Below are positions 11,480 through 46,537 of a DNA stretch of 51,313 nucleotides, one piece after another. The notes under the pieces are model-generated. The model saw nothing but the letters and a program-made list of their open reading frames with translations, was not told the origin of the DNA and ran no database searches. Made by a program: the position numbers and the translations under genes. Each line of letters starts with the position of its first letter. The stretch's first letter is position 1. Origin of the DNA: Actinomycetes bacterium (GTDB lineage: Bacteria > Actinomycetota > Acidimicrobiia > Acidimicrobiales > Palsa-688); NCBI GenBank assembly GCA_021809885.1, contig JAJZJY010000001.1, positions 1 to 51,313 of the forward strand. Direction: 5' to 3'.

Positions 11480-11719
11480 TTACCTCTTTGCTCTTTGCGC
11501 CGCAAGGGACGCTGGGGCCAGCGTGGATGGGGCTTCGTTCTCGGCGGCCGCCCTGTTCGCCTCGGCGAGAGCCAGGTAGATCTCCTGTCGATGAACGGGG
11601 ACCGATCTCGGAGCATCCACTCCGACTCGCACCTGCGTTCCGTCTATCTCGAGGATCTTGACGACGATGTTCTCGCCGACCGTGATGCACTGCCCGACCC
11701 GCCGTGTCAGGATGAGCAT
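11480..11719 (-). CDS. csrA: Carbon storage regulator CsrA (flagellar, FliW-partnered type)
   Basis: 79 aa. MLILTRRVGQCITVGENIVVKILEIDGTQVRVGVDAPRSVPVHRQEIY is the canonical CsrA fold sequence. SD AGAGG is upstream. Overlaps the fliW 3' end by 13 nt. Confidence 0.9.
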   Translation of the reverse strand: MLILTRRVGQCITVGENIVVKILEIDGTQVRVGVDAPRSVPVHRQEIYLALAEANRAAAENEAPSTLAPASLAAQRAKR

Positions 11720-12093
11720 CGTGCCGCCTCTAGGGACAGAGGGGCGGCGACAGGTGCCGAGAGGTCGCGTACGACGACCTGGGCGGCGAGACCGTTGTCG
11801 CGGTTGACCACCACGGGGCCGAGGAGGTTGGCGGTTACCGACGTGGCTGAGACCGTGAGGATCAGCCACACCACCACGGCGGAGGAATCACCGACCCCGA
11901 GGGTCTCGAGGGTGTCGTCGTCGATGACCATCGGGGCGATATCGGGGAAGAACGAGGCTGGTTCGGTGAGCATGACGAAGCTCGCGTCGGTCGCACTGAG
12001 GCGAACCAGGGGCGCCGGCCCCATGTGCTCGACATGAAACGAGCGTCGTCCGGGAAAGCCGGGAAGTCCGACGGGGAACTCGATCGCGTGCAC
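11707..12093 (-). CDS. fliW: Flagellar assembly factor FliW
   Basis: 128 aa. FPVGLPGFPGRRSF and ANLLGPVVVN motifs typical of FliW, directly upstream of csrA. GTG 12093 is the first possible start because an in-frame stop lies just upstream. Confidence 0.85.
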   Translation of the reverse strand: MHAIEFPVGLPGFPGRRSFHVEHMGPAPLVRLSATDASFVMLTEPASFFPDIAPMVIDDDTLETLGVGDSSAVVVWLILTVSATSVTANLLGPVVVNRDNGLAAQVVVRDLSAPVAAPLSLEAARCSS

Positions 12094-12096
12094 CTC

Positions 12097-12330
12097 TTAC
12101 CTATCGGCAGACCGACGGGAGTCGTCGGTACGATCGGGAGATGAATCGTCTTGGGAGGTGTAGGAGCGCCACAGACGAGCGAGGACCGAGGTCCCGCCAG
12201 AGACGATGACCAAGGCGACCAGGTAGCGGGTCAGGAGCCCGTATACCGAGAGGTTGCCGGAGGAGAAGACGACCAGGGCCGGCACGCAGATCACCACAGC
12301 AAGGGCTGCTAGCGTCGATGGGCGGGGCAT
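12097..12330 (-). CDS. Small two-TM membrane protein, unknown function
   Basis: 77 aa. Two hydrophobic helices and an acidic/Ser-rich tail. ATG start 9 nt after the flhA stop. Its last codons contain the GCCGATAG box of fliW. Confidence 0.5.
   Translation of the reverse strand: MPRPSTLAALAVVICVPALVVFSSGNLSVYGLLTRYLVALVIVSGGTSVLARLWRSYTSQDDSSPDRTDDSRRSADR
12101..12108 (-). promoter_or_regulatory. GCCGATAG box 7 nt upstream of the fliW GTG
   Basis: GCCGATAG-GTAAGAG-GTG(12093). Embedded in the last codons of the 77-aa ORF. Confidence 0.45.
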
Positions 12331-16979: not shown

Positions 16980-17401
16980 ACCAAGAGCCCCCCGTCGGGG
17001 TCGGATCGGACCAAGCGGAGACATCCGTCGGCTCCGTACTCTCGGTGTCCGTCCAGAGCGCCGAGAGCGTCCTGGGCGGCCAGAAGTCTCGTTGCGATCA
17101 GGGTGGAGGCCTCCGACGCTCTGCGCGACGAGAGGGTCAGCATCTCCTTGAACTCGATCCAAGCCCCGGCCACTGAGGGGTCGGTCGTGGTCCCAGCGGA
17201 GCTGAGCTCCTCCAAGCCGTCGTTGTCGAAGGTCCTGGCCGCGTCGACGACGGCTGCGGTCAGCTCCTCTTGGGCGAGGTCGATGAGGCGCCGCGGACGG
17301 TCTGCGCTCACCAGCAGCTCGAGCTCCTCGACTCGCAGCAGGATGCGCTCAGCGGCGTGCACTCCACGGCTGAGCACTTCGGTGACATCTGTTCGACCCA
17401 T
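16976..17401 (-). CDS. FlgN-like export chaperone (putative)
   Basis: 141 aa, helical and acidic, immediately upstream of and coupled to flgK. Called by position and composition only. ATG 17401 was chosen because it lies 7 nt after a GCCGATAG box. Confidence 0.5.
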   Translation of the reverse strand: MGRTDVTEVLSRGVHAAERILLRVEELELLVSADRPRRLIDLAQEELTAAVVDAARTFDNDGLEELSSAGTTTDPSVAGAWIEFKEMLTLSSRRASEASTLIATRLLAAQDALGALDGHREYGADGCLRLVRSDPDGGLLV

Positions 17402-17408
17402 GCCACAG

Positions 17409-17416
17409 CTATCGGC
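17409..17416 (-). promoter_or_regulatory. GCCGATAG box 7 nt upstream of the flgN-like ATG
   Basis: GCCGATAG-CTGTGGC-ATG(17401). Confidence 0.5.
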
Positions 17417-17453: not shown

Positions 17454-17483
17454 CTCACCCAGGTATGGCACCGATGCCGATAG
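17454..17483 (+). promoter_or_regulatory. Sigma-28-type promoter, CTCA-N18-GCCGATAG, 7 nt upstream of the GT2-GT4-MT GTG
   Basis: CTCA (17454-17457), 18 nt, GCCGATAG (17476-17483), TTGGTAG, GTG (17491). Confidence 0.55.
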
Positions 17484-17490
17484 TTGGTAG

Positions 17491-20034
17491 GTGGATCTCG
17501 CTTGCTTCGACGTGACCTTGGTGTTGGTGACCCGGGACCGTGCGGACCTCACGCTCGCCTTCGTGCAGGCGCTCGCCAAGGTATCACCTCCTTCGGACTT
17601 CGAGGTCGTGATCGTCGACAACGGATCGTCCGACGCCACCTCTGCCCTGCTCGCCATCCTCGGAGGCGACGTGAAGACGATACGCAACGACCGCGAGGCC
17701 GGCTTCGCTGCCGCCTGCAACCAAGGTGCGGCTGTGGCAGCAGGTCGACATCTCGTCTTCGCCGAGGCTCGCTGCGAGCCCCTCGCCGGGTGGATGCGAG
17801 CCATGGTAGGTCTGCTCGACGCTCACGCCCAGATCGGCGCCGTCGCCCCGAGGCTGATCGCGCCCGACACCACGATGCACTCGGGCGGTCTCGCGCTGGC
17901 CTCGCGAGGCGAGACCCTTGAAGCGGTCCCCCGCCTGAGAGGGATCCCAGCCAGCGACTCCCGTTCGGCCACGCCGAGAGAGGTCGACGCTGCCTCCTCG
18001 ACGTGCATGGCGGTTCGCCGAGAGGCCTTCGAGTCGCTCGGAGGCTTCGACGAGGGCTACCTTCACGGCGGCGGAGACGTCGAGTTGTGCCTGGCGATCG
18101 CCGACGCCGGGTGGAAGATCGTCTACGAGCCGGCCGCAATGCTGATGGTCAAAGGGACTTCCCTTCCGGGGTGCGGCGACCTCGTGCTCTGCGCTGCCGA
18201 CCGCGACCGGCTGAACCGGCGCTGGGGGACGCGGGTGGCGCCATCTGTGGACCTGGGAGGCGACGGGGCTCCACGAGAGGTGCGACGACACCTGAGGGAG
18301 GCGCGCTCCGGGCATCGTGGCGCGAACGTGGCGGGCTTCTTCGACGCCGAGCTCGGTATCGGCCAGTCTGCCCGTCTGGTGGTGGACGCTCTCGAGGCGT
18401 CGTCGGTCGATGTCGTCTCGTCCTCGTACTACCGACATCTGAACCGGGCCGCTCAGCGCTTCGAGCGCCGCGGCGACGCGAGCTCCCCGTGGGATCTCAA
18501 CATCATCTGCGTGAACGGAGACATGCTCGGACTGTTCGCTCTCGAGGCTGGGGAAAGGTTCTTTCGGGATCGCTACAGCGTGGCGATGTGGCACTGGGAA
18601 CTCGAGGAGCTCCCGGAGAGCCATGTCAGAGCGATCGACCTCGTCGACGAGATATGGGTCGGATCGGAGTTCACCAGAGCGGCGGTGAGCGCCTGCACCG
18701 ACAAGACGGTGAGAACCGTGCCGCTACCGGTCGCCCGGCGACGAGGTGGGTCGGTCGAGGCCCACAGCCGCGAGGAGATGGGAATCCCGGAGGGTTTCGT
18801 CTTCGGCTTCATGTACGACGCCAACTCGATCGCGGCGCGTAAGAACCCCGACGGTCTGATCTCCGCCTTCTGTGACGCCTTCGAAGACGGCGAGGGGCCG
18901 GCACTCGTCGTCAAGACGATCAACGCAGGGGCGAGGCCAGACGTTGCCGCAGCGCTTGCACGCCAGGCGTCTCGGCGCAGCGACATCACCGTGGTGGACC
19001 GCTACCTCGACCGCTCCCAGGTGGGGGCCTGGACCGGCTTGGTCGACTGCTACGTCTCGTTGCACCGCTCCGAGGGGTTCGGCCTCACCATCGCCGAGGC
19101 GATGTCGTGGGGAACGGCGGTGATAGCGACCGCGTACTCGGGCAACCTCGACTACATGACCGACGACAACTCCTACCTGGTGCCTTGGGTGCCGGCCGAG
19201 GTGCCAGCCGATGCCGCCCCCTACCCACGGGGCGCCAGATGGGCCGAGCCGGACATGGCATGCGCCTCCGCCATGCTGCGCAGCGTGTGGGAGGACCCCG
19301 ACGGCGCCAGGGCACGCGGGGCGAGGGGAAAGGCCGACATCGCACGAACCCATGGGATCGAGGCGGCGAAAGCGGTCGTCGAAGAGCGCCTGGAGGCCAT
19401 CGAGGCCACGATGGCCGCCAGGCGCAAGAGGGCGCACAGCGCCAAGCCCTCCCCTTGTCCGACCCTGGTGCCACACCCCGACTTCGGCACCGGGGTGCGC
19501 TTCGGGACCGCCGACTCGGCGCTGCCAGCCGACGCTTCGGCCCCGCTGCGACTCAATCTCGGAGCTGGCGACGAGCCCCGACGCGGCTTTGTGTCGATCG
19601 ACATGCGTCGCGACGTAGCCGACGTGGTGGCTGCGCTCGAACGCCTCCCCTTCCCCGGCGCGACCGTCGCCGAGATCCTCGCCTCCGACGTGCTGGAGCA
19701 CTTCCCTGCCTCGCGCACAGCGGAGCTGCTCGCCGAGTGGAACCGGGTGGCCGTCATGGGGGCCAAGATCACCGTCAGGGTCCCCAATCTGCTCGCCCTG
19801 GCACAGCTGCTAGTGGCCCACCCCCACACACGGGTCAACGTCATTCGCAACATCTACGGCGGTCACCGCTGGGGGCCGGATGGGGCCTGGGACACGCATC
19901 ACACTGGATGGACGCCCGACATGCTCGCAGCCGAGCTCGTCGCAGCAGGCTTCGTCGTGCTCAGCGACGACGGTGACACCAACAACACCGTCGTCGCCAT
20001 GAAGGTCGCGGAGCCGAGCCGACAACGCGCCTAG
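17491..20034 (+). CDS. Tri-domain enzyme: GT2 glycosyltransferase - GT4 (group 1) glycosyltransferase - SAM-dependent methyltransferase
   Basis: 847 aa. GT2: VIVDNGSSDAT...GGDVELC. GT4: EGFGLTIAEAMSWGTAVIATAYSGNLDYM. Methyltransferase: LNLGAGDEPRRGFVSIDM...ASDVLEHF. The GTG start is 7 nt after GCCGATAG. Its stop shares the tetranucleotide CTAG with the convergent flhB stop. Confidence 0.85.
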   Translation: MDLACFDVTLVLVTRDRADLTLAFVQALAKVSPPSDFEVVIVDNGSSDATSALLAILGGDVKTIRNDREAGFAAACNQGAAVAAGRHLVFAEARCEPLAGWMRAMVGLLDAHAQIGAVAPRLIAPDTTMHSGGLALASRGETLEAVPRLRGIPASDSRSATPREVDAASSTCMAVRREAFESLGGFDEGYLHGGGDVELCLAIADAGWKIVYEPAAMLMVKGTSLPGCGDLVLCAADRDRLNRRWGTRVAPSVDLGGDGAPREVRRHLREARSGHRGANVAGFFDAELGIGQSARLVVDALEASSVDVVSSSYYRHLNRAAQRFERRGDASSPWDLNIICVNGDMLGLFALEAGERFFRDRYSVAMWHWELEELPESHVRAIDLVDEIWVGSEFTRAAVSACTDKTVRTVPLPVARRRGGSVEAHSREEMGIPEGFVFGFMYDANSIAARKNPDGLISAFCDAFEDGEGPALVVKTINAGARPDVAAALARQASRRSDITVVDRYLDRSQVGAWTGLVDCYVSLHRSEGFGLTIAEAMSWGTAVIATAYSGNLDYMTDDNSYLVPWVPAEVPADAAPYPRGARWAEPDMACASAMLRSVWEDPDGARARGARGKADIARTHGIEAAKAVVEERLEAIEATMAARRKRAHSAKPSPCPTLVPHPDFGTGVRFGTADSALPADASAPLRLNLGAGDEPRRGFVSIDMRRDVADVVAALERLPFPGATVAEILASDVLEHFPASRTAELLAEWNRVAVMGAKITVRVPNLLALAQLLVAHPHTRVNVIRNIYGGHRWGPDGAWDTHHTGWTPDMLAAELVAAGFVVLSDDGDTNNTVVAMKVAEPSRQRA

Positions 20035-23512: not shown

Positions 23513-24402
23513 TCCTCCGGGTCCAGATAGGCGACGACCTGGCAGGCGGCACGCTTGCCGGTGGCCACCAGGTCTGCGTTGAACAGCGGCCGGTCCTGGG
23601 CGTAGACCAGCAGCGGCGACCCAACCTGGTGGCCGAGGGATATGACCTGGTCGACGCAGAGCGACTCGGCGACAGACAGTGGGATCGCGGTCATGGCGAA
23701 GCGCAGCGACACCGTCACCGGCAGAGCCTTGACGGCCTTCTCCATGGCGGGACTTACCGCCGCCTCGTGGCGCGCTCCGCCGCCACCCGAACGCTCGACA
23801 AGCGGGCGGAGGGCGGATGTCGGGATGCACACGTCGAGACCCCAGGAGGTCTGCGCCACCTGAGCAAGGCGTACGGAGAAGCGCAGGATCACACACTGCT
23901 CGCCGCGGTCTCTCGCATGTGAGGCGGCTATGACGATCTGGGTCACCGGAGACGCCTCGACGTGTCCGAGCACCGCAGATGTCGAAGCGGCTACCTCCTG
24001 GGCGATCACCTCCAAGAGCGGGGCGATGATCTGGCGCTCCATGTCGGAGAGGGCACGGAGGGGGAGCGGGCCGACCCCACTGCCGGCCAGCTGCAAGTCG
24101 ATGGCGGTCATTGCCAGGTCGATCGGCAGATGGATGACGGCCGTCCCGCTCCCCGCTCCGCGCAGCTCGAAGCTCCCGAGCAACGACGGTCCAGCGAGGT
24201 CGGCCTCGAAGTCGCCCCAGTCGAGTTGGTCGAGTGACTCGAGGTGGACCTGGGTCCGGTTCCTCAGCAGAGCCCCTATGCGCCCCCCGCCGGAGCGGGC
24301 GAAGCTCTCGGCCATGCCCCTGATCGCCAAGACGCCGGCCCGGTCTATCTCCTCGGGATGGCGGAAGTCCCACGGGGTGACGGCGGCTTCGGTGTCGGGC
24401 AC
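23509..24402 (-). CDS. fliM: Flagellar motor switch protein FliM
   Basis: 297 aa with a FliM middle domain and a C-terminal SpoA-like segment, located upstream of fliN. GTG 24402 is 8 nt after a GCCGATAG box. Confidence 0.85.
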   Translation of the reverse strand: MPDTEAAVTPWDFRHPEEIDRAGVLAIRGMAESFARSGGGRIGALLRNRTQVHLESLDQLDWGDFEADLAGPSLLGSFELRGAGSGTAVIHLPIDLAMTAIDLQLAGSGVGPLPLRALSDMERQIIAPLLEVIAQEVAASTSAVLGHVEASPVTQIVIAASHARDRGEQCVILRFSVRLAQVAQTSWGLDVCIPTSALRPLVERSGGGGARHEAAVSPAMEKAVKALPVTVSLRFAMTAIPLSVAESLCVDQVISLGHQVGSPLLVYAQDRPLFNADLVATGKRAACQVVAYLDPEE

Positions 24403-24410
24403 TACCCTAT

Positions 24411-24418
24411 CTATCGGC
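24411..24418 (-). promoter_or_regulatory. GCCGATAG box 8 nt upstream of the fliM GTG (internal promoter candidate)
   Basis: GCCGATAG-ATAGGGTA-GTG(24402), in the 55-nt fliL-fliM gap. Confidence 0.45.
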
Positions 24419-36100: not shown

Positions 36101-36490
36101 TTAGCTCCCAATGGTCAAGACGGACTGATATGCGGCAGTTGCGTCTTTGATGACGGCAGCGTTCGCCTGGTATTCCGACTGGGCGGTGGTCAAGGCCACC
36201 ATCTCGGTAGCCATGCTCACTGCGGGTCTCGCCACATATCCCGCCGCGTCGGCCAGCGGGTTGGTCGGGTCGTATGCAAGAATACCTTTGGCAGATCCGA
36301 GCGCGATGGCGACAGCCCCCACCCCGCCTGTTGCGGAAGGCTGGGCCGCTACGTACTGGGCTTGGTACACCGGCTTGCCCGGCGTGGTCACGTCCGAGGC
36401 GTTCGCCACGTTGCCGCCGATCGTATCGAGCCAGAGCTGGTCGACGTTCATCCCCGAGGTGGCGATCGACAGGGTCGGGAAAAGGCTCAC
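36101..36490 (-). CDS. flgC: Flagellar proximal rod protein FlgC
   Basis: 129 aa. SIATSGMNVDQLWLDTIGGNVANA N-terminus and C-terminal EMVALTTAQSEYQANAAVIK. GTGA overlap with the flgB stop. Confidence 0.9.
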   Translation of the reverse strand: MSLFPTLSIATSGMNVDQLWLDTIGGNVANASDVTTPGKPVYQAQYVAAQPSATGGVGAVAIALGSAKGILAYDPTNPLADAAGYVARPAVSMATEMVALTTAQSEYQANAAVIKDATAAYQSVLTIGS

Positions 36491-36831
36491 TGAAAGCCAC
36501 CCCCCATGGAGCCACGCAGGATACGGAACTGGATGTTCAACGCGTTCACGACCGCTTGGGCCTGGAGGTCGTTGGACGACAGCTTCGACAGCTCCTGGGT
36601 GAGATCCACGTTGTTGCCGTTGGGCCCCGCCGGTGCGGCCGACAGTCCCGCTGCCGGCGTGACTGTCGAAGGAGCCGACGACCCGAGAGCAGCGCGCAGC
36701 GAGCTCTCGAAAGAGTAGGTCCTCGATACATATCCTGGCGTCTGGTCGTTGGCGATGTTGCCGGCGAGCACCTGGCGCTGCGCGCTGAGCGCGCTGAGCG
36801 CATAGCCGAGCACGTCGATGGTCGAGCTCAT
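36487..36831 (-). CDS. flgB: Flagellar proximal rod protein FlgB
   Basis: 114 aa. LSAQRQVLAGNIANDQTPGY N-terminal rod motif. There is no Shine-Dalgarno in the 15 nt upstream. The ATG forms an ATGA overlap with the small-ORF stop. Confidence 0.88.
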   Translation of the reverse strand: MSSTIDVLGYALSALSAQRQVLAGNIANDQTPGYVSRTYSFESSLRAALGSSAPSTVTPAAGLSAAPAGPNGNNVDLTQELSKLSSNDLQAQAVVNALNIQFRILRGSMGGGFQ

Positions 36832-36920
36832 CGGAGACGCGGACCAACGGAGACCCGGCAGTTGAGGACCGGGGGGAGGAGGGCCGCCATGTTCTCGTGA
36901 CGGTGGCGGGCGTCATGCAT
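36828..36920 (-). CDS. Leader small ORF (30 codons) coupled to flgB; part of a conserved leader element (copy A)
   Basis: Strong RBS: AGAAGGAGA, then 8 nt, then ATG at 36920. Encodes MHDARHRHENMAALLPPVLNCRVSVGPRLR. The TGA overlaps the flgB ATG (ATGA). Paralogous to 39678-39836. Confidence 0.4.
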   Translation of the reverse strand: MHDARHRHENMAALLPPVLNCRVSVGPRLR

Positions 36921-36997
36921 CGTGGTGGTCTCCTTCTGTTGTGTGGACCAGCCCCCATCCGAAGCTCGCTGGACCAGCTGATGTCTGACCAGATCCT

Positions 36998-37027
36998 CTA
37001 TCGGCAACCCAACCACCTCATGCTGAG
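36998..37027 (-). promoter_or_regulatory. Sigma-28-type promoter, CTCA-N18-GCCGATAG, for the flgB leader/operon
   Basis: Minus strand reads CTCA (37027-37024), N18, GCCGATAG (37005-36998). The -35 region overlaps the stop codon of the upstream sigma-like gene. Confidence 0.55.
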
Positions 37028-37776
37028 ATCGCCTGCGCGGGATGGTCATGGAGGTAGGAGTCGAGGACCTGCGGCAGGGTTGGCCCCAGACGGCGATGGA
37101 AGTTGGCCGGCCGGCGTACACGTTCGCCGGCTGCGACCTTTATGAGGTACTCCTTCACCTCCGGGTCGGGATGGGCCGAGATCACCCCCTCCACCTCCGT
37201 CCTCATCAGCCCCGCTATGACCTGCTCCGATGCATCACATGCTCCAGATGGCGAGGCGGTCGTCATGTGGTTCTCGGCCGAGGTGCCGTAGCTCACGATT
37301 GCACGCAGTACAGGGCTTCCACCCTGTACTACCTCGTCGAGAAGCGCGTCTCGCTGCGAGACATCGGGCTCAGCTCCGTTGCGCTGCGCGGCCTCCTCCC
37401 ACGCCGACTCATAGGCCTTCCGCAGCGTTCGGGGCCCGCGACCAAGGGGATCCACGGCTCGGCAGGCATCGATCAAGGCGTGATGGAGCTGACCGTCGAG
37501 ATAGGCGACTTGCTGAGCCGGAGGGGCATCGAGGTCAAGGCGGTCCAAGGCGACTGCCACCCGCTCGCCCAACCCCGAGACCAGGTCATCGTGAACCGAC
37601 ACCGGCAACCCAGCCGCGCGCTCCGAAGCTAGCATCTTCGCATGAGCGAAGAGAACCTTGACAAGAGCCGACCGTTTCGAAGTGTAGCTGGCTCCGGAAC
37701 CTGAGGCGGCCTCAACGGCGTCGGCGAGGACGCGCTTCGTGGATGCCGATCGCCGCCTGGGCACGAAACCTCTCAT
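37018..37776 (-). CDS. Divergent sigma-70-family-like protein (FliA/WhiG-like region 2; atypical region 4)
   Basis: 252 aa. LVKVLFAHAKMLAS...DDLVSGLGERVAVALDRLD...VAYLDGQLHHALIDACRAVDPLGRGPRTLRK follows the region 2.1-2.4 spacing pattern of the fliA product in this window. The C-terminal HTH is only weakly recognisable. Confidence 0.4.
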   Translation of the reverse strand: MRGFVPRRRSASTKRVLADAVEAASGSGASYTSKRSALVKVLFAHAKMLASERAAGLPVSVHDDLVSGLGERVAVALDRLDLDAPPAQQVAYLDGQLHHALIDACRAVDPLGRGPRTLRKAYESAWEEAAQRNGAEPDVSQRDALLDEVVQGGSPVLRAIVSYGTSAENHMTTASPSGACDASEQVIAGLMRTEVEGVISAHPDPEVKEYLIKVAAGERVRRPANFHRRLGPTLPQVLDSYLHDHPAQAISA

Positions 37777-37953
37777 GACGCCGCCGCCCGATTCGTCTCG
37801 CCGAGCACGATTGACATTGCGCGTTGACGGCGAAGCGGAACGCGTTCGACCGGCGGTGAGGCTCCTGGGGCATCATCTCCAGGGGCCGGCGCACAGCGGA
37901 GGTCAAAGGCGCCGGCGAGCAAAGGCCCGACCTCGCAGTGGGGGCGCGTTGGA

Positions 37954-39684
37954 TCAGAGGACATCGCCACTCCTATCGCCAGTGCCGGTGGCCAGCCGAC
38001 AGCCAAGGTATGATCCGAGCTCCGGTCCAGAGATGGGCCTGCAAAACAAGTACCCTTGCGCGTGAGGACAGCCGACGCGACGCAACGCAACGGCTTCGGA
38101 CTCGGCCTCGACGCCTTCGGCGATAACGTCCAAGCCGAGAGCGAGGCCGAGTGTGACCACCGTTGTCACGATGGCGGCATTGGTGGCGTCGAGGCCGACT
38201 CCGGTCACGAAAGAGCGATCGATCTTCAATGCGTTCACCGGTAGTCGCTTGAGATAGGCCAGGGACGAATAGCCGGTCCCGAAGTCGTCGAGCGCAACTC
38301 TCACGCCCAGCTCCCGGAGCGACCAGAGACGGCGGACGGCCGCGTCGGGGTCGGAGAGGAGCGCGCTTTCGGTGACCTCCAAGGTGAGCCGATGGGCTTG
38401 GAGACCCGAGGCGCTCAAGGCTCTCCCCACCAACGTCGGTAGGTGGGGATCCTCGAGCTGGAGGGCCGAAACGTTGATAGCGACAGAGAGCGGGCCTGCC
38501 ACTCCAACAGGCCAGCTCGTCGCTACATGGCAAGCCTCTCGGAGCACCCATCCCCCAAGCGCGACTATGACACCTGAGCTCTCAGCAGCTCCGATGAAAG
38601 CATCTGGGGCGGCAAGCGAGCCGGTCGGTTGAGCCCATCGGACCAGGGCTTCGGCTCCGACCGGCCGACCGGTGACAAGGTCGACAACTGGTTGATAGTG
38701 CACCACAAACTCGTTGTCGCTCAACGCTTGGAGCAGTGCTGCCGGTAGCACCACTCGGCTGAGCGCGTCGGTCCGCTCCGAGGCGCTGAAGAACCGGAGA
38801 CGGTTGCCGCCGCTGCTGGAGGCGACTCCCATAGCCAGTTCAGCGTCCTCGATGAGAAGGGCGGGCAAGACGCTCGGAGAGGTGGCGAACGCTATGCCGA
38901 TGCTCACGGTCAGGACCACCCGGTCGCCGTCGACGAGGAACGGCTCGGCGAAGCAGGCCGTAACCCGCTCCGCCAGAGCGCTGGCCGCCAGCCTTCCCGC
39001 TCGGGTCTCACACGCTACTGCCAGGCAGTCGTAGTCGACCACGCCAAGGTCGTCGCCAGCCCGTAGGTCGCTTTGCACACGCCGAGTCGCTGCGACGAAC
39101 ATCTGCGCGGCGAACCCACGCCCGCAGGCCCGGGCCACCGCGCGGTACTGGTCCAGTTTGACCACCAAGACCACCACCTGGGACCGGGAGTCGGGTGGAA
39201 GCCTGCCGACGGCCTCGGCAATACGCGCTGTGAACTCTCTACGCTGCGGGAGCTCTTCGAGGAGCCTTCGGCGGGCGTAGTGCTCTGCCTCGTAGGCGTT
39301 CTCCCTATCGAGCTCGCTGATCGTGGCCACCACCCATCCCGACGACGGGTCCTCGAGCCCGTTGCGGAAAGTGACCTCCGTCGGGCACCACCGGCCGTCG
39401 TTGTGGCGGGTTCGCAGGACCAGAGCCACCCTCGCCCCCGGCGCTGCCAAGCACCTCCTCCACGCCTCGCGCCACCGATCCAAGTCGTTGGGATGCACAA
39501 GATCTCTGGTGCGCATCTCGAGACGTTGCTCCGGCGAGTAGCCGAGGATGCGGGAGTACGAAGGGCTGACTTCCACCGCCTCGCCGAAGCGGTCGAGAAG
39601 CACTAGGCCGTCATCCGCGTCCCGAAGGAGGGCTTGCTGCCGCGTCTCTTGCTCGGAGCGGGTCGACGCCGTGTCGATCACCAT
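37954..39684 (-). CDS. PAS - degenerate GGDEF - EAL protein (predicted c-di-GMP phosphodiesterase)
   Basis: 576 aa. PAS (LVLLDRFGEAVEVSPSYSRILGY). The GGDEF position reads GVVDYDCLAV (degenerate). EAL motifs are intact: EALVRW, AINVS, LEVTES, DDFGTGYSSL, KIDRSF, AEGVE, QGY. Confidence 0.9.
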   Translation of the reverse strand: MVIDTASTRSEQETRQQALLRDADDGLVLLDRFGEAVEVSPSYSRILGYSPEQRLEMRTRDLVHPNDLDRWREAWRRCLAAPGARVALVLRTRHNDGRWCPTEVTFRNGLEDPSSGWVVATISELDRENAYEAEHYARRRLLEELPQRREFTARIAEAVGRLPPDSRSQVVVLVVKLDQYRAVARACGRGFAAQMFVAATRRVQSDLRAGDDLGVVDYDCLAVACETRAGRLAASALAERVTACFAEPFLVDGDRVVLTVSIGIAFATSPSVLPALLIEDAELAMGVASSSGGNRLRFFSASERTDALSRVVLPAALLQALSDNEFVVHYQPVVDLVTGRPVGAEALVRWAQPTGSLAAPDAFIGAAESSGVIVALGGWVLREACHVATSWPVGVAGPLSVAINVSALQLEDPHLPTLVGRALSASGLQAHRLTLEVTESALLSDPDAAVRRLWSLRELGVRVALDDFGTGYSSLAYLKRLPVNALKIDRSFVTGVGLDATNAAIVTTVVTLGLALGLDVIAEGVEAESEAVALRRVGCPHAQGYLFCRPISGPELGSYLGCRLATGTGDRSGDVL

Positions 39685-39836
39685 GTTCTCCGGGGAGGGA
39701 CGGAGGCCCGGCCGTCGAGGGCCTGGAGGAGCAGGAGGAGCGCTGCCATGTTCTCGTGACCGCAGTCGGCATCATGCGCCGTGGTGCTCTCCTTCTGCTC
39801 GTGCGGTCCAAGCGCACCAACACCCCCCCTCACCAT
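39678..39836 (-). CDS. Leaderless small ORF (52 codons) overlapping the EAL gene start; conserved leader element (copy B)
   Basis: ATG 39836 lies 7 nt after CCCGATAG. Encodes MVRGGVGALGPHEQKESTTAHDADCGHENMAALLLLLQALDGRASVPPRRTW. The TGA (39678-39680) lies just past the EAL-gene ATG (39684). About 80% nt identity to copy A by hand alignment. Confidence 0.35.
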   Translation of the reverse strand: MVRGGVGALGPHEQKESTTAHDADCGHENMAALLLLLQALDGRASVPPRRTW

Positions 39837-39843
39837 GCTCGTG

Positions 39844-39871
39844 CTATCGGGCCCCGTCCGGCTGAGGTTTA
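39844..39871 (-). promoter_or_regulatory. Sigma-28-type promoter, TAAA-N16-CCCGATAG
   Basis: Minus strand reads TAAA (39871-39868), 16 nt, CCCGATAG (39851-39844). Close to the classical TAAA-N15-GCCGATAA. Confidence 0.5.
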
Positions 39872-39959
39872 GCGTCCACTGGCGGGCACCGGTGGCCGGC
39901 AAAGCACGAAATCCCAGGTGCTGGTTTTGGTGGGCACTTCACGCATTGTGCGCTTTGTC

Positions 39960-39981
39960 CTGGTTTAGTTCTGGTTTAGTT
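39960..39981 (+). repeat. Perfect 11-bp tandem direct repeat CTGGTTTAGTT x2 (degenerate third copy CTGGTTTTGGT at 39921-39931)
   Basis: Read directly in the AT-richer divergent intergenic region between the EAL-leader promoter and fliA. It lies 43-64 bp upstream of the fliA GCCGATAG box. Confidence 0.9.
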
Positions 39982-40023
39982 CGCTCCAGACGGACGACGA
40001 GAGCACAGCAGGCGCCTCGGCCG

Positions 40024-40031
40024 GCCGATAG
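40024..40031 (+). promoter_or_regulatory. GCCGATAG box 7 nt upstream of the fliA ATG (putative autoregulated leaderless promoter)
   Basis: GCCGATAG-ACGGGTT-ATG(40039). No recognisable TAAA or CTCA at -35. Confidence 0.45.
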
Positions 40032-40038
40032 ACGGGTT

Positions 40039-40722
40039 ATGAGAACGGCTCCCCACACCGACGAGGAGGGGGCTTGGAGTGCTTATGGATCCGAACGCAG
40101 CCTCGAGAACCGCAACCGGCTCGTCGAGTTCCACGCCTCGGTGGCGAGACGTGCTGCACTACGCTGCCTCCCCTACGCGCGAAGCGTCGGGGCGGCGATG
40201 ACGGACATCGAGGACCTGGAGGGGATCGCCTTCGAGGGCCTCATCGAAGCTATCGAACGCTTCGATCCGACGCGGGGGGTGGACTTCGCCCACTATGCCA
40301 ACCTGCGCGTCGACGGACATGTCAGAGACGCTTTGCGCGCGGATGACTACTTGTCGCGGCGTTCCCGCCAGCAGGTGAAGGCCTGGATGGGAGAAGATTT
40401 CGAGGCGATGAGCGATGAGAAGAAGAGGACGGCAGCGCGCCTCGCCAGTCAGCGCCCCATCCACCTCGCCGACCTGCCAGCGGGCGACGAAGTCGAGGGG
40501 CTCACGGAAGTCGCCGGGATAGAAGACGAGATCCTCTCCCCCTCCGTCGTCACCGACGCTCTGGAGTCGCTGAACCCGGCAGAGCGGACGGTGATCGAGT
40601 TTCGCTATCTGCTCGGGATGTCGCTGTCGGCCATTGGGGTGGTCCTGTCGGTCACCGAGAGCCGAGCTTGCCAGATCCACCTGGCGGCGCTGAGCCGGCT
40701 GCGCGCAATCGGAAGGCCCTGA
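40039..40722 (+). CDS. fliA: Flagellar sigma factor FliA/WhiG (sigma-28 family)
   Basis: 227 aa. Region 2: NRLVEFHASVARR...DLEGIAFEGLIEAIERFDPTRGVDFAHYANLRVDGHVRDALR. Region 4 HTH: LNPAERTVIEFRYLLGMSLSAIGVVLSVTESRACQIHLAALSRLR. Confidence 0.85.
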   Translation: MRTAPHTDEEGAWSAYGSERSLENRNRLVEFHASVARRAALRCLPYARSVGAAMTDIEDLEGIAFEGLIEAIERFDPTRGVDFAHYANLRVDGHVRDALRADDYLSRRSRQQVKAWMGEDFEAMSDEKKRTAARLASQRPIHLADLPAGDEVEGLTEVAGIEDEILSPSVVTDALESLNPAERTVIEFRYLLGMSLSAIGVVLSVTESRACQIHLAALSRLRAIGRP

Positions 40723-43744: not shown

Positions 43745-44575
43745 TTAGAGGCCGAGCGCCTTCAACACGATGTTCGGTGCCTGCTGCGCTGTCGCCAGCA
43801 TGGAGGCACCGGTCTGCTCGAGGATCTGCTGGGTCGCCAGCTGTGTAGATGCCTGGGCGAAGTTGGTGTCCACGATCCGGGACTGGGCCGACTGGAGGTT
43901 CTGTTGCCCGACCGTGAGGTTGGCCACGATGTCTTGCAGCTTGTTCTGCTGTGCCCCGAGGTAGGCTTGCATGCTGTCGACGGTGTTGATCGCAGCCGAC
44001 AGCGAGGTGATAGCTGTGGTCGCGTTCGCCTGGGTGTCCACCGAGGTGGTGTTGAGCCCGAGGCCGGTGTCAGTTGCCGCGGTGGAGATGGTCACTGCCA
44101 GCTGGCTGTAGGAGCTGACGCCCGTGCCGACCTGGAAGGTCCCGGTGTACGTGCCCGAGAGGAGCACCTGGGACCCGAACTTGGTCGTGTTGGCGATCTG
44201 GGTCAGGTCCGACTGGAGAGCGCTGTACTCCTGCTGGTTCGCTGCGGCGGCAGCCGGGTCGGTCGAGCCCGAGTTGGCCGAGGAGTATGCGAGCTGCTGC
44301 ATCTGCTGGACGATACTGACCGCCTGATTGAGCGCGCCCTGAGCTGTCTGGAGCATCGAAACACCGTTCTGGGCGTTGGTGATGTCCACTCCGTAGCCGG
44401 CCGCCTGGTCTCCCAGCAGGCCTGCGGAGACGTACCCGGCGGGGTTGCTCGCAGCGGTCTGGATCGCCAAACCGGACGACATCTCACCGATAGTCGTGTT
44501 GAGGGCACTGTTGGTGGCGTTGAGGGTGTCATACGCCTGGGTCGCCGAAGCGTTGAAGTTGACTGTGATTGACAC
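43745..44575 (-). CDS. fliC: Flagellin
   Basis: 276 aa. Conserved D0/D1 termini (ITVNFNASATQAYDTLNATNSAL...; ...NFAQASTQLATQQILEQTGASMLATAQQAPNIVLKALGL). GTG 44575 with SD AAAGG 7 nt upstream. Short Thr/Ser-rich central region. Confidence 0.92.
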   Translation of the reverse strand: MSITVNFNASATQAYDTLNATNSALNTTIGEMSSGLAIQTAASNPAGYVSAGLLGDQAAGYGVDITNAQNGVSMLQTAQGALNQAVSIVQQMQQLAYSSANSGSTDPAAAAANQQEYSALQSDLTQIANTTKFGSQVLLSGTYTGTFQVGTGVSSYSQLAVTISTAATDTGLGLNTTSVDTQANATTAITSLSAAINTVDSMQAYLGAQQNKLQDIVANLTVGQQNLQSAQSRIVDTNFAQASTQLATQQILEQTGASMLATAQQAPNIVLKALGL

Positions 44576-44580
44576 GTTGG

Positions 44581-44595
44581 CACCTTTCGTCCGTG
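44581..44595 (-). promoter_or_regulatory. Putative CsrA binding region in the flagellin 5' leader
   Basis: Minus-strand RNA reads AUCACGGACGAAAGGUG. It has one ACGGA motif and a second GG motif overlapping the SD, preceded by a small hairpin CCCCAUGACGGGG (44606-44618). Analogy to the two-site hag leader of B. subtilis. Confidence 0.35.
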
Positions 44596-44628
44596 ATCGA
44601 TAACGCCCCGTCATGGGGTTCGGAGTGT

Positions 44629-44658
44629 GGATCGGCACAGACGCTCCGCGGACTTGAG
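44629..44658 (-). promoter_or_regulatory. Sigma-28-type promoter, CTCA-N18-GCCGATCC, for flagellin
   Basis: Minus strand reads CTCA (44658-44655), N18, GCCGATCC (44636-44629). Same spacing as the flgB and GT2-GT4-MT promoters. The predicted leader is ~46 nt. Confidence 0.55.
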
Positions 44659-44801
44659 GCGAACGGAGACATGTCCGACACTGGCCCTTGGCCGCCTCCG
44701 CCAAGTGGCGTCCCAGACTTCTCATCACGCCTCGTCCCCGCGGCAGCCGGTGCCAGTAGGCGCCGTGCGCTCGTCTTTGTACTTGGGACCCGGTCAGCTC
44801 C

Positions 44802-45443
44802 TCAGCCGGCCACCGTGTCCTCCCCGGCGGGGGCTGACCCCGGCGCCGCCGGCTGCAGGAACCGGTTGAGGGCGTTGAGCACGGCCCGGGCGGCCGCCTC
44901 CGCCGGCGTGGCGCCCCGGGCGAGGCCACGCCGGTGTTCCCCGGTGCGGGTGTCCTCGAGCAGGACCAGGGTGCCCGAGCCCAGATCAGGGGGCAGCTCG
45001 TGGGCAGCGGTCACCCCAAAAGGGGTGGGCAGGCCGAGGGTCTCGAGGCCGGCGACGACCGCTCGACCGGCGGCGATCGCGTCGCCGGCGTCGGCCTCGA
45101 CCGCTGTCCGCCGGTGCCCCAACGCCAGGTGCAGCTCGACGGTGCCCACCGCCGCCACGGGCACGGCGACCCGGAGGCGCACCCGCTGGCCCCGGCGGTC
45201 GTCGCTGCGCTCGCCCAGGACCTCCACGACGAGGTTGCCGTCGAGCAGCGCGGCCGCGATGCGCTCGACTGCGGTCCGCAGCGCCGCGGTGTCCGAGCCC
45301 TCCCTCGCAGCGATCTCGATGGCCAGCGCGCCGTCGCGCTCGCCGAAGCCGACGAAGGTGATGCCCGCGAGCTGGCGGAGCTCCAGCTCGAGCTGGTCGA
45401 TGGCCACCGGGTCGACGAGCGCCGGGTGGCCAGGAAGGGTCAC
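44802..45443 (-). CDS. Hypothetical 213-aa protein translationally coupled to the diguanylate cyclase
   Basis: GTG 45443 gives a GTGA overlap with the DGC stop (45440). Two beta-beta-alpha-like halves. The C-terminal RGLARGATPAEAAARAVLNALNRF resembles the last helix of dsRBD-like folds. I cannot assign a family. Confidence 0.5.
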   Translation of the reverse strand: MTLPGHPALVDPVAIDQLELELRQLAGITFVGFGERDGALAIEIAAREGSDTAALRTAVERIAAALLDGNLVVEVLGERSDDRRGQRVRLRVAVPVAAVGTVELHLALGHRRTAVEADAGDAIAAGRAVVAGLETLGLPTPFGVTAAHELPPDLGSGTLVLLEDTRTGEHRRGLARGATPAEAAARAVLNALNRFLQPAAPGSAPAGEDTVAG

Positions 45444-46537
45444 CCGGCGGCCTTGTCGGCGTAGAGCCGCTCGTCGGCGAGGTGCTGCAGTCGAACGGCA
45501 TCCTCGGCGTCCGCCGGGAAGCAAGCGACCCCGGCCGAGAAGTGGACGCCACGGCCCGGTAGCGCCTCGGCGAGCCTCGGGCGCAGCCGCTCCACCAAGG
45601 GATCGAGCACGGCCGGGGAATCGGCGTTGAGGATGATGAGGGCGAACTCGTCGCCGCCGATGCGGGCGGCGACGTCGCCGCGCCGCAGCACGGCGCGGAC
45701 CTCGACGCCGATGGCGCGCAGGGCGGTGTCGCCGGCCGCGTGGCCCAGCTCGTCGTTTACCAACTTGAAGTCGTCCAGGTCGATGAGCACGAGGGCGAAC
45801 GGCCACCCGTACCGGCGGCTGCGCGCCACGGCCTCGGCGAGCTGCTGCTCGTAGCTGCGGCGGTTGAGCAGCCCGGTCAGCGGGTCGTGGCCGGCGTCGT
45901 GGCCGAGCACATCCATCTTCAGGGCCGCGCTCGCCATGCTTGTGACGAAGGCTGCCACCGCCCGGTCGACGGCGCCGGGCGGCGACGTGTACAAGCCGGG
46001 CGGGGCGCCGAGCAACGACCGGGCCGCCTGCTCCTCACCACCCGCACCGAGCGGGCGGCGGCCGAGGCGGAACACCTGGCGACCGATCGCCGTCTCCTCC
46101 GTCACCAAGACGGCGTCGTCAACCCCGAAGCGGGCCGCCACGATGTCCAGCACCTCGTACACGAAGCCGACCCCCGTCGGGGCCCGCAGCAGGAGGCCGG
46201 CGAACTCGAGCAACGGCGGGGCTCCCGCGCCGTCCAACCCCTCGCACAGCTGCGCGGCGAAGCTCACGGCGCCGTCCCCGTCGTCGCCGGCTGCCGGCGG
46301 CAATCCCACGGCCACCGGATGGTGTCCCGGGGACAGCCTGGCTCGAGCCCTGCGTACATCGCGGTCGTGAACCTCCGACGATGGTAGAGACGAGGCGCCT
46401 CCGTCGCTCCCCAGCGGCGACACTAGTGGGTGGGCACCCGGGTCGACCCCGGCGCCGGCTCCCAACCGAGGTTCGCTTCCGCTATTGCGCCCAAAGCCGC
46501 TCAGAGCGCGGGGAGGGGCACTCACCGCGTGGGCCAC
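45440..46537 (-). CDS. Diguanylate cyclase (GGDEF) with an N-terminal sensory region
   Basis: DPLTGLLNRRSY...LIDLDDFKLVNDELGHAAGD...RRGDVAARIGGDEFALI. The GGDEF active site is intact and an RxxD I-site (RRGD) lies five residues upstream. The start (GTG 46537) is uncertain. Confidence 0.85.
   Translation of the reverse strand: MAHAVSAPPRALSGFGRNSGSEPRLGAGAGVDPGAHPLVSPLGSDGGASSLPSSEVHDRDVRRARARLSPGHHPVAVGLPPAAGDDGDGAVSFAAQLCEGLDGAGAPPLLEFAGLLLRAPTGVGFVYEVLDIVAARFGVDDAVLVTEETAIGRQVFRLGRRPLGAGGEEQAARSLLGAPPGLYTSPPGAVDRAVAAFVTSMASAALKMDVLGHDAGHDPLTGLLNRRSYEQQLAEAVARSRRYGWPFALVLIDLDDFKLVNDELGHAAGDTALRAIGVEVRAVLRRGDVAARIGGDEFALIILNADSPAVLDPLVERLRPRLAEALPGRGVHFSAGVACFPADAEDAVRLQHLADERLYADKAAG

Follow-up and report, generated by a model that had tools for sequence, protein, structure and literature searches.

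A leader segment shared by flgB and an EAL phosphodiesterase gene in an acidimicrobial flagellar cluster

The window studied here is a 51,313-nucleotide (nt) stretch of contig JAJZJY010000001.1. It has 69% G+C and contains a flagellar gene cluster from an uncultured actinobacterium of the Acidimicrobiia type; the relatives of its FlgB protein are named Acidimicrobiia or Acidimicrobiaceae. On the minus strand lies a series of genes comprising flgB, flgC, fliE, fliF, fliG, fliH and fliI. Upstream of flgB there is a gene (37018-37776, minus strand) encoding a protein of 252 amino acids (aa), p252, and this is preceded in turn by a gene for a phosphodiesterase with PAS, degenerate GGDEF and EAL domains, which we term the EAL gene. 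Its translation contains the motifs EALVR, DDFGTG and KIDRSF, and the GGDEF motif is absent. A sigma factor gene, fliA, lies on the plus strand and diverges from the EAL gene. Its product is matched best by FliA/WhiG models, with TIGR02479 (FliA_WhiG) at the top at a score under the curated cut-off. The window also encodes fliS, fliD, flagellin, the pair fliW-csrA, flhA and fliM. Our subject is a leader element that occurs twice, upstream of flgB (copy A) and upstream of the EAL gene (copy B), and that in each copy carries a short upstream open reading frame (uORF). The coordinates of the features are collected in Table 1.

The similarity of the two leaders is clear. A repeat finder aligns a 64-nt block at 83% identity (36875-36938 with 39734-39797), and with gaps the homology extends over about 120 nt at 74-78% identity (E = 4.5e-18 at 74%). 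Cores of 16 and 18 nt each occur twice in the window, where 0.5 and 0.14 occurrences are expected. The duplication is far beyond chance, and the EAL gene leader does contain a second copy of the flgB leader element, as the original prediction had proposed. Within the window nhmmer finds just these two copies, with the next match at E = 2, and neither the core patterns nor nhmmer gave a third. The decamer GAGAACATGG has three matches window-wide against 0.05 expected. Its third occurrence is only weakly significant, because in 13% of shuffles the copy B leader and the region of the EAL start share some 10-mer equally well. We also considered that the 5' part of the copy B leader might be a duplicate of the EAL coding start; this was rejected, since the local alignment is no better than that of shuffles (P = 0.13).

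The coordinates of copy B were read directly off the minus strand. Everything that had been described for this leader is present, namely TAAA-N16-CCCGATAG, the ATG at 39836 placed 7 nt after the box, a 52-codon frame, its TGA within ATGGTGA, and the decamer. The spacer between the TAAA and CCCGATAG is 16 nt, and the 7 nt between CCCGATAG and the ATG read CACGAGC. The single mismatch in the box lies at the first base of the -10 sequence. Further down, the Shine-Dalgarno (SD)-like sequence AGAAGGAGA is followed by ACG-GCG at positions where relatives and copy A carry ATG. The uORF ends inside the sequence ATGGTGA. The overlap had been given as 4 nt, and this is the classical GTGA overlap if the EAL gene starts at GTG 39681, the call of most assemblies of the species (575 aa); with a start at ATG 39684 it is 7 nt. 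The EAL gene has an SD of its own, GGAG, placed 6 nt before GTG 39681.

The 30-codon frame of copy A opens with the ATG at 36920, just downstream of a strong SD (AGAAGGAGA at 36937-36929). This uORF has been called as a gene in five independent assemblies. An SD of its own is absent at flgB, in contrast to the GGAG at the EAL gene. The A and B frames are identical in phase, and both stay open until a stop codon that overlaps the downstream start, so that the conserved frame that had been predicted is borne out. The junctions to the two downstream genes differ (TCTCCGATGAGC and GGAGAACATGGTGATC), yet the same frame stops on the start codon in each. Both genes thus show the overlap of stop and start expected of a coupled uORF (ATGA at flgB and ATGGTGA at the EAL gene). 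The flgB-flgC junction within the flagellar operon has an overlap of the same stop/start style.

A survey of Actinomycetota has given the consensus promoter sequences T(A/C)AA-N16-GCCGATAA and CTCA-N16-17-GCCGAACT for this class of sigma factor (PMC12871210). The EAL leader has a fitting -35 element, spacer and -10 element with a central CGA, and this supports a promoter of the FliA/WhiG type. A cognate sigma factor is encoded in the window, and boxes of this type lie before flgB, flhA, fliM, fliW and fliA. Four related species also have GCCGATAG upstream of flgB, and in one of the four it forms part of a textbook TAAAGTTT-N11-GCCGATAG. In a further observation on a related species (L061:5296-5345), the flgB promoter segment GTCAGGCACTTGCCGATAG is tandemly duplicated. 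In the window itself the fliA and EAL promoters, which diverge, are separated by an AT-richer stretch that contains a perfect tandem repeat, two units of GAACTAAACCA at 39961-39982 (minus strand). The sequence CTAAACC also makes up the -35 of the EAL promoter, and the repeat could be a site for a regulator.

We find ten boxes of the form [GC]CCGATA[AG] in the window, eight of them facing a gene start. In six cases the box is separated by exactly 7 or 8 nt from an ATG or GTG with an open frame of at least 50 codons, against a per-position background of 1.6%. For five of these six, the codon is the first possible start of an annotated gene, and none of the five genes has an SD; the sixth is ATG 39836. 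Leaderless initiation at ATG 39836 is therefore plausible, and the earlier proposal of such a start is credible given a geometry that matches these five genes. The arrangement is indirect but strong evidence that the sigma-28-type promoters of this organism would place the start of transcription on the start codon, and the flagellar sigma-28 regulon of the window seems to be largely leaderless.

Table 1. Coordinates of the features of the two leaders and of the genes that begin beside a sigma-28-type box
Feature	Position	Strand	Basis or remark
-35-like TAAA, FliA/WhiG-type EAL promoter	39868..39871	-	Fits the T(A/C)AA-N16-GCCGATAA consensus (PMC12871210)
-10 box CCCGATAG, one mismatch to GCCGATAG	39844..39851	-	One of the 10 [GC]CCGATA[AG] boxes in the window
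ATG, probable transcription start and leaderless initiation codon	39834..39836	-	N7/N8 geometry like that of five genes
uORF B, 52 codons + TGA (39680-39678)	39678..39836	-	Sequence; translation MVRGGVGALGPHEQKESTTAHDADCGHENMAALLLLLQALDGRASVPPRRTW
8-nt direct repeats CACGAGCA flanking a 40-nt segment	39843-39836 and 39803-39796	-	Repeat by itself not statistically significant
SD-like AGAAGGAGA	39788..39796	-	Followed by ACG 39782-39780 and GCG 39779-39777
Segment homologous to the flgB leader	39691..39810	-	64-nt core 39734-39797
Decamer GAGAACATGG around in-frame internal ATG (39749-39747)	39746..39755	-	Pattern count
Junction GAGAACATGGTGA	39678..39690	-	GGAG-type SD, EAL start ATG 39684 / GTG 39681, uORF TGA
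PAS - degenerate GGDEF - EAL phosphodiesterase gene	37954..39684	-	Pfam, NCBIfam
Copy A -10 box GCCGATAG, flgB promoter	36998..37005	-	Also upstream of flgB in L001, L002, L004 and L061
uORF A, 30 codons, MHDARHRHENMAALLPPVLNCRVSVGPRLR	36828..36920	-	TGA overlaps flgB ATG (ATGA, 4 nt)
Copy A segment homologous to copy B	36838..36950	-	Repeat search, blastn, nhmmer
flgB, without an SD of its own	36487..36831	-	In relatives an SD precedes the flgB start by 7-9 nt
fliA, box GCCGATAG + 7 nt + ATG 40039	40024..40041	+	227 aa, same product called by assemblies
fliW, start GTG 12093	12093-12108 (box to start)	-	128 aa; box at 7 nt
fliM, start GTG 24402	24402-24418 (box to start)	-	297 aa; box at 8 nt
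Glycosyltransferase gene, start GTG 17491	17476-17493 (box to start)	+	847 aa; box at 7 nt
Unknown ORF, start ATG 17401	17399-17416 (box to start)	-	141 aa; box at 7 nt

The orthologs of the EAL protein (55-60% identical) provide an outgroup for the leader. Their genes lie in other genomic contexts, and synteny with fliA or p252 is absent. They have long leaders with SD-led uORFs that begin M-A-H/R and vary in length and sequence. In one ortholog locus (L065) CTCA-N17-GCCGATAG is followed after 7 nt by AGAAGGAG. If the 40 nt between the CACGAGCA repeats are taken out of copy B, AGAAGGAG lies 7 nt after the box, just as in L065, and the ATG at +1 of copy B sits on the junction of this segment. 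In the window AGAAGGAG is found in copies A and B only, and in L065 it occurs once. The ACG-GCG-CAT of copy B matches ATG-GCG-CAT in L069 and ATG-GCA-CAC in L067 at a better SD spacing. This suggests that the SD-led ATG of an ancestral uORF has become ACG and been lost in both copies, and that a start was then regained differently, by a change of GCG to ATG in A and by a 5' ATG in B. The different initiation routes of the two copies that had been proposed are in this way suggested by the outgroup comparison, on the basis of a short match.

The start codons of the downstream genes point the same way. EAL orthologs start within GACGCCGATGAGCC, and the EAL gene of the window has TCG at that position and starts six codons upstream (39664-39684, minus strand). 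The start context of flgB in the window, CCGATGAGC, matches the start of the EAL orthologs and not that of flgB in relatives. Together with the L065 arrangement and the ACG-GCG-CAT match, this context suggests that the leader originally belonged to the EAL gene and that flgB received a copy of it, probably with the ATG-AGC; the matches are short, and our confidence in this is moderate at best. We rejected the possibility that the uORF is the decayed remnant of an extension once present at the N-terminus of the EAL protein, the N-termini of the orthologs being short and variable; a 600-aa EAL call in L069 looks like read-through of the leader. Two ortholog loci share a 43-nt block just upstream of the EAL start (L065:1914-1956 and L067:2231-2272, 86% identity, E = 4e-9). 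It is missing from the window, and may be a conserved leader element of the EAL gene family.

The reading that we favor, with moderate confidence, is that the element is a remodeled leader of a sigma-28-dependent phosphodiesterase gene, partly duplicated onto flgB, in which the uORF delivers ribosomes and the peptide is unimportant. RNA polymerase with a sigma-28-type factor would start about 7 nt past the CCGATAG box. In copy B the transcript would then begin at AUG 39836 and be translated leaderless; leaderless translation is common in Actinobacteria. In copy A the uORF would be initiated by means of its strong SD and ATG 36920, both of which are read from the sequence. Ribosomes that end the uORF would re-initiate at the overlapping start, opening the GC-rich leader on the way. 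Since flgB has no SD of its own it probably depends on the ribosomes of the uORF, and since the EAL gene has its GGAG, the effect of the uORF there would be modulatory. What matters functionally is probably not the sequence of the peptide.

Joint expression of the rod gene and the phosphodiesterase would come first, and mainly, from the shared promoter type, and the shared leader may add a common translational setting. E. coli PdeH (YhjH) is a FliA-dependent enzyme of cyclic di-GMP (c-di-GMP) metabolism. In P. putida BifA is partly FliA-dependent (PMC5300878), and among the WhiG targets predicted in Actinomycetota, c-di-GMP enzymes are the most widespread (PMC12871210). The window resembles these systems in having a phosphodiesterase behind a sigma-28-type promoter, beside flagellar and sigma factor genes. 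At the level of the promoter nothing essential differs, and the duplicated leader is the sole addition here. A phosphodiesterase under the flagellar sigma factor is thus an already described design. Because both genes have a sigma-28-type promoter, which is known wiring, their co-control needs no shared leader, and the proposal that a shared cis element serves this purpose is unnecessary (PMC12871210; PMC5300878).

The proposed coupling has close parallels among known systems. Like classical ATGA/GTGA translational coupling, it involves an overlap of 4 nt (A) or of 4 or 7 nt (B), with flgB lacking an SD. It differs in that the upstream partner is an ORF of 30 or 52 codons without a recognizable product, duplicated onto two unrelated genes. 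Mycobacteria offer well-documented cases of leaderless mRNAs and of short ORFs that form a leaderless first cistron (PMC4633059; bioRxiv 10.1101/834739). These too are Actinomycetota, and the likeness includes an AUG at the deduced 5' end, a short unannotated ORF ahead of an annotated gene and a peptide that is not conserved. Here, in contrast, the promoter is of the sigma-28 type, the 5' end and translation are deduced from sequence, and the ORF ends on the downstream start codon. The mycobacterial polycysteine attenuators differ further, since the leaders of the window have neither the diagnostic codon run nor a terminator. A run of five Leu codons occurs in copy B only and varies between strains, and there is no codon run common to A and B. 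The combination of codon run and terminator/antiterminator that marks attenuators of the trp/his or mycobacterial Cys-uORF type is accordingly not found, and no terminator-like site was seen in either leader. What we describe is probably a local variant of known uORF translational coupling, with a putatively leaderless first cistron, and not a new type of regulator.

We have sought signs of the element outside the window. The leader block is absent from the flgB leaders of relatives (FlgB 51-75% identical), which are 50-100 nt long and have an SD of their own, and it is absent from the leaders of the EAL orthologs. An nhmmer profile built from A and B had no match in the flgB or EAL leaders of relatives among all fetched loci, and blastn of the window leaders against the EAL-ortholog leaders gave nothing significant. 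A codon-degenerate DNA pattern for the peptide core HENMAALL, run against 596 Gb of species-representative genomes and against JGI metagenomes, gave 16 and 30 matches, all in unrelated coding genes. A scan of metagenomes with the peptide profile and pattern yielded none that was confirmed. Against 5.8 billion clusters the peptide profile recovered the two ORFs of the window alone, and phmmer against 1.84 billion representatives found self plus two repetitive, spurious ORFs. Neither a DNA nor a peptide relative was found in the four public collections, and the leader element is confined to one species. The original prediction had looked to a third copy, or to an ortholog in related genomes, to preserve the element; neither exists in the window or in the loci and collections searched, and by its own standard this counts against the prediction, within the reach of these data.

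A number of observations weigh against the coupling model. The differences between copies A and B fall evenly on the three codon positions (8/8/8), and among the codons that differ 6 are synonymous and 12 non-synonymous. In both copies the uORF frame has a better codon-usage score than the other two sense frames; in absolute terms the score is intermediate, at the 10th percentile of coding and the 89th of non-coding windows. Base-composition estimates indicate that at 69% G+C a 50-codon frame is open about one third of the time, and that a 5' ATG in the right frame with the frame open has a probability of about 0.12. At the EAL gene the SD argues against a need for coupling. The uORFs of the EAL orthologs stop 5-81 nt before the EAL start, so that coupling by overlap is not conserved. 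The EAL transcription start and the translation of the uORFs are themselves deduced, and with two paralogous copies in a single species conservation is poorly measurable.

Variation between strains adds to this. We compared ten strain-level contigs that are 99.6-100% identical. There is one single-nucleotide polymorphism (SNP) in uORF A, V>F, and in the 159 nt of uORF B there are six SNPs (three synonymous, three non-synonymous) and an in-frame 3-nt deletion. Among the amino acid replacements in the uORFs are H>Q, which falls in the core, and also Q>P, L>P and V>F. The SNP density in uORF B is about four times that of the EAL gene (about 1%), and the 200-nt divergent promoter region has 0. Such a hot spot of polymorphism suggests weak constraint. 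Thus selection on the peptide is not indicated by the codon positions, the codon score or the strain SNPs. The claim that the shared peptide matters is not upheld, given the even spread of differences, the 3:3 ratio of SNPs in B with one non-synonymous SNP in A, and the lack of relatives. A copy B allele in one strain contig (L026:1003-1150, equivalent to window 39700-39830) has five SNPs and the 3-nt deletion within about 90 nt. Three of its changes restore the copy A state, which suggests gene conversion between the leaders or an older allele.

Many of these observations are also what would be expected if the element were a neutral relic, a recent segmental copy between leaders that accompanied insertion of the EAL gene between fliA and the p252-flgB unit. 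The frames and overlaps would then be by-products of a GC-rich sequence, and only the promoters and ordinary ribosome-binding signals would matter. We consider this unlikely, although it is the most serious of the alternatives. It accommodates an element that is species-specific, differences between A and B that show no codon-position bias, a copy B that varies strongly from strain to strain and no longer has an SD-led ATG, and an EAL gene with its own SD. An open in-frame 52-codon ORF could arise by chance at an estimated probability of about 0.1, and the third copy of the decamer is not significant locally. It accounts less well for flgB, which has lost its own SD and now begins 4 nt within a 30-codon ORF served by an excellent one; an uncoupled flgB would be poorly translated. 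Nor does it explain why both copies end the same frame exactly on a start codon despite their different junctions, or why the start codons of A and B have been gained by different routes.

A less probable alternative is that the conserved block is a cis-regulatory RNA, a binding site or fold for CsrA, a small RNA or a ligand such as c-di-GMP, acting for example through masking of AGAAGGAGA by CUCCUCC. The context is suggestive, since c-di-GMP riboswitches are found in front of GGDEF/EAL genes and, in C. difficile, in front of flgB (PMC6366702, PMC5386303), and the 16-18-nt cores are perfectly conserved between the copies. With the c-di-GMP-I riboswitch Cd1 of the C. difficile flgB leader the window shares a long flgB leader and the link to a c-di-GMP gene; it differs in lacking an Rfam match, a terminator or a supported fold. 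A scan of the window with Rfam at the gathering score gave no matches. Even at E <= 10 over 36700-40100 there was a single irrelevant snoRNA match (E = 3.6), and the family models GEMM-I and GEMM-II were not matched. The folding energies of the two leaders are no better than those of shuffles (z = +0.13 and +1.05). The SD is predicted to pair with a downstream CUCCU (P = 0.75-0.96 in copy B), though such partners are plentiful at this base composition. RNAalifold of A, B and the L026 allele gave one compensatory pair, 39771/39744, changing from C-G to U-A; the covariation term is positive, which is unfavorable. We rejected this helix as evidence of structure because the pair probability is 0.00-0.11 in each sequence alone. 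One strain SNP disrupts a predicted pair. Finally the element is absent from all relatives, unlike real classes of riboswitch.

Regulation by CsrA would be one form of this alternative. CsrA-bound leaders carry at least two GGA motifs, one of them in the SD, and in B. subtilis CsrA and FliW control the flagellin leader (hag). As there, fliW and csrA are present, and there is a GGA within AGAAGGAGA, the SD of the uORF. The known target is however flagellin, and not flgB or a phosphodiesterase, the conserved 16-nt core is without GGA, and a CsrA site here is putative. The fliW-csrA pair of the window (11480-12093, minus strand) sits behind a sigma-28 box. The flagellin leader (44575-44660, minus strand) has a GCCGATCC box, a CCCC...GGGG hairpin and, beside the SD, a CACGGAC motif that resembles a CsrA-type site.

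More doubtful still is the bolder proposal that a new element of translational control, the block AGAAGGAGA...GUCACGAGAACAUGGC...CUCCUCC, was copied from the leader of the phosphodiesterase gene to that of flgB, and that CsrA/FliW, a small RNA or a nucleotide signal reads it. If it were true, a switch acting after transcription would govern rod assembly and c-di-GMP hydrolysis jointly, and the independently regained starts would show selection for translating the element.

That the uORFs encode two paralogous small proteins (30 and 52 aa) that themselves act in motility or c-di-GMP signaling is very improbable: the frame scores best of the three sense frames, uORF A has been called by gene finders and the peptides share the core HENMAALL and L-x-x-R-x-S-V-x-P-R, but they are just 47% identical with no synonymous excess, the strain SNPs alter the core, the EAL orthologs' uORFs differ in length and sequence, and neither the homologs (none among the clusters and representatives searched) nor the purifying selection expected of a conserved small-protein family was found.

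If the coupling model is correct, a flagellar operon can acquire the leader of a phosphodiesterase gene, apparently with its start codon too, and uORFs can take over the delivery of ribosomes. The most general point would be that sigma-28 promoters in Acidimicrobiia routinely give leaderless mRNAs. The duplicated element is of modest interest, being restricted to a single species and going little further than established principles. Of wider bearing is the rule of box, N7 and start codon for the flagellar regulon of this lineage, and a leaderless rule bears on the annotation of gene starts in uncultured Actinomycetota.

Two further features of the cluster may be noted. A 63-codon ORF (37773-37964, minus strand) bridges the EAL gene and the gene for p252, overlapping both; it is without a family match and has been called in five assemblies. 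Just past the flagellin gene there is a GGDEF-domain protein (45440-46537, minus strand), likely a diguanylate cyclase, so that the cluster would have both a synthase and a hydrolase of c-di-GMP.

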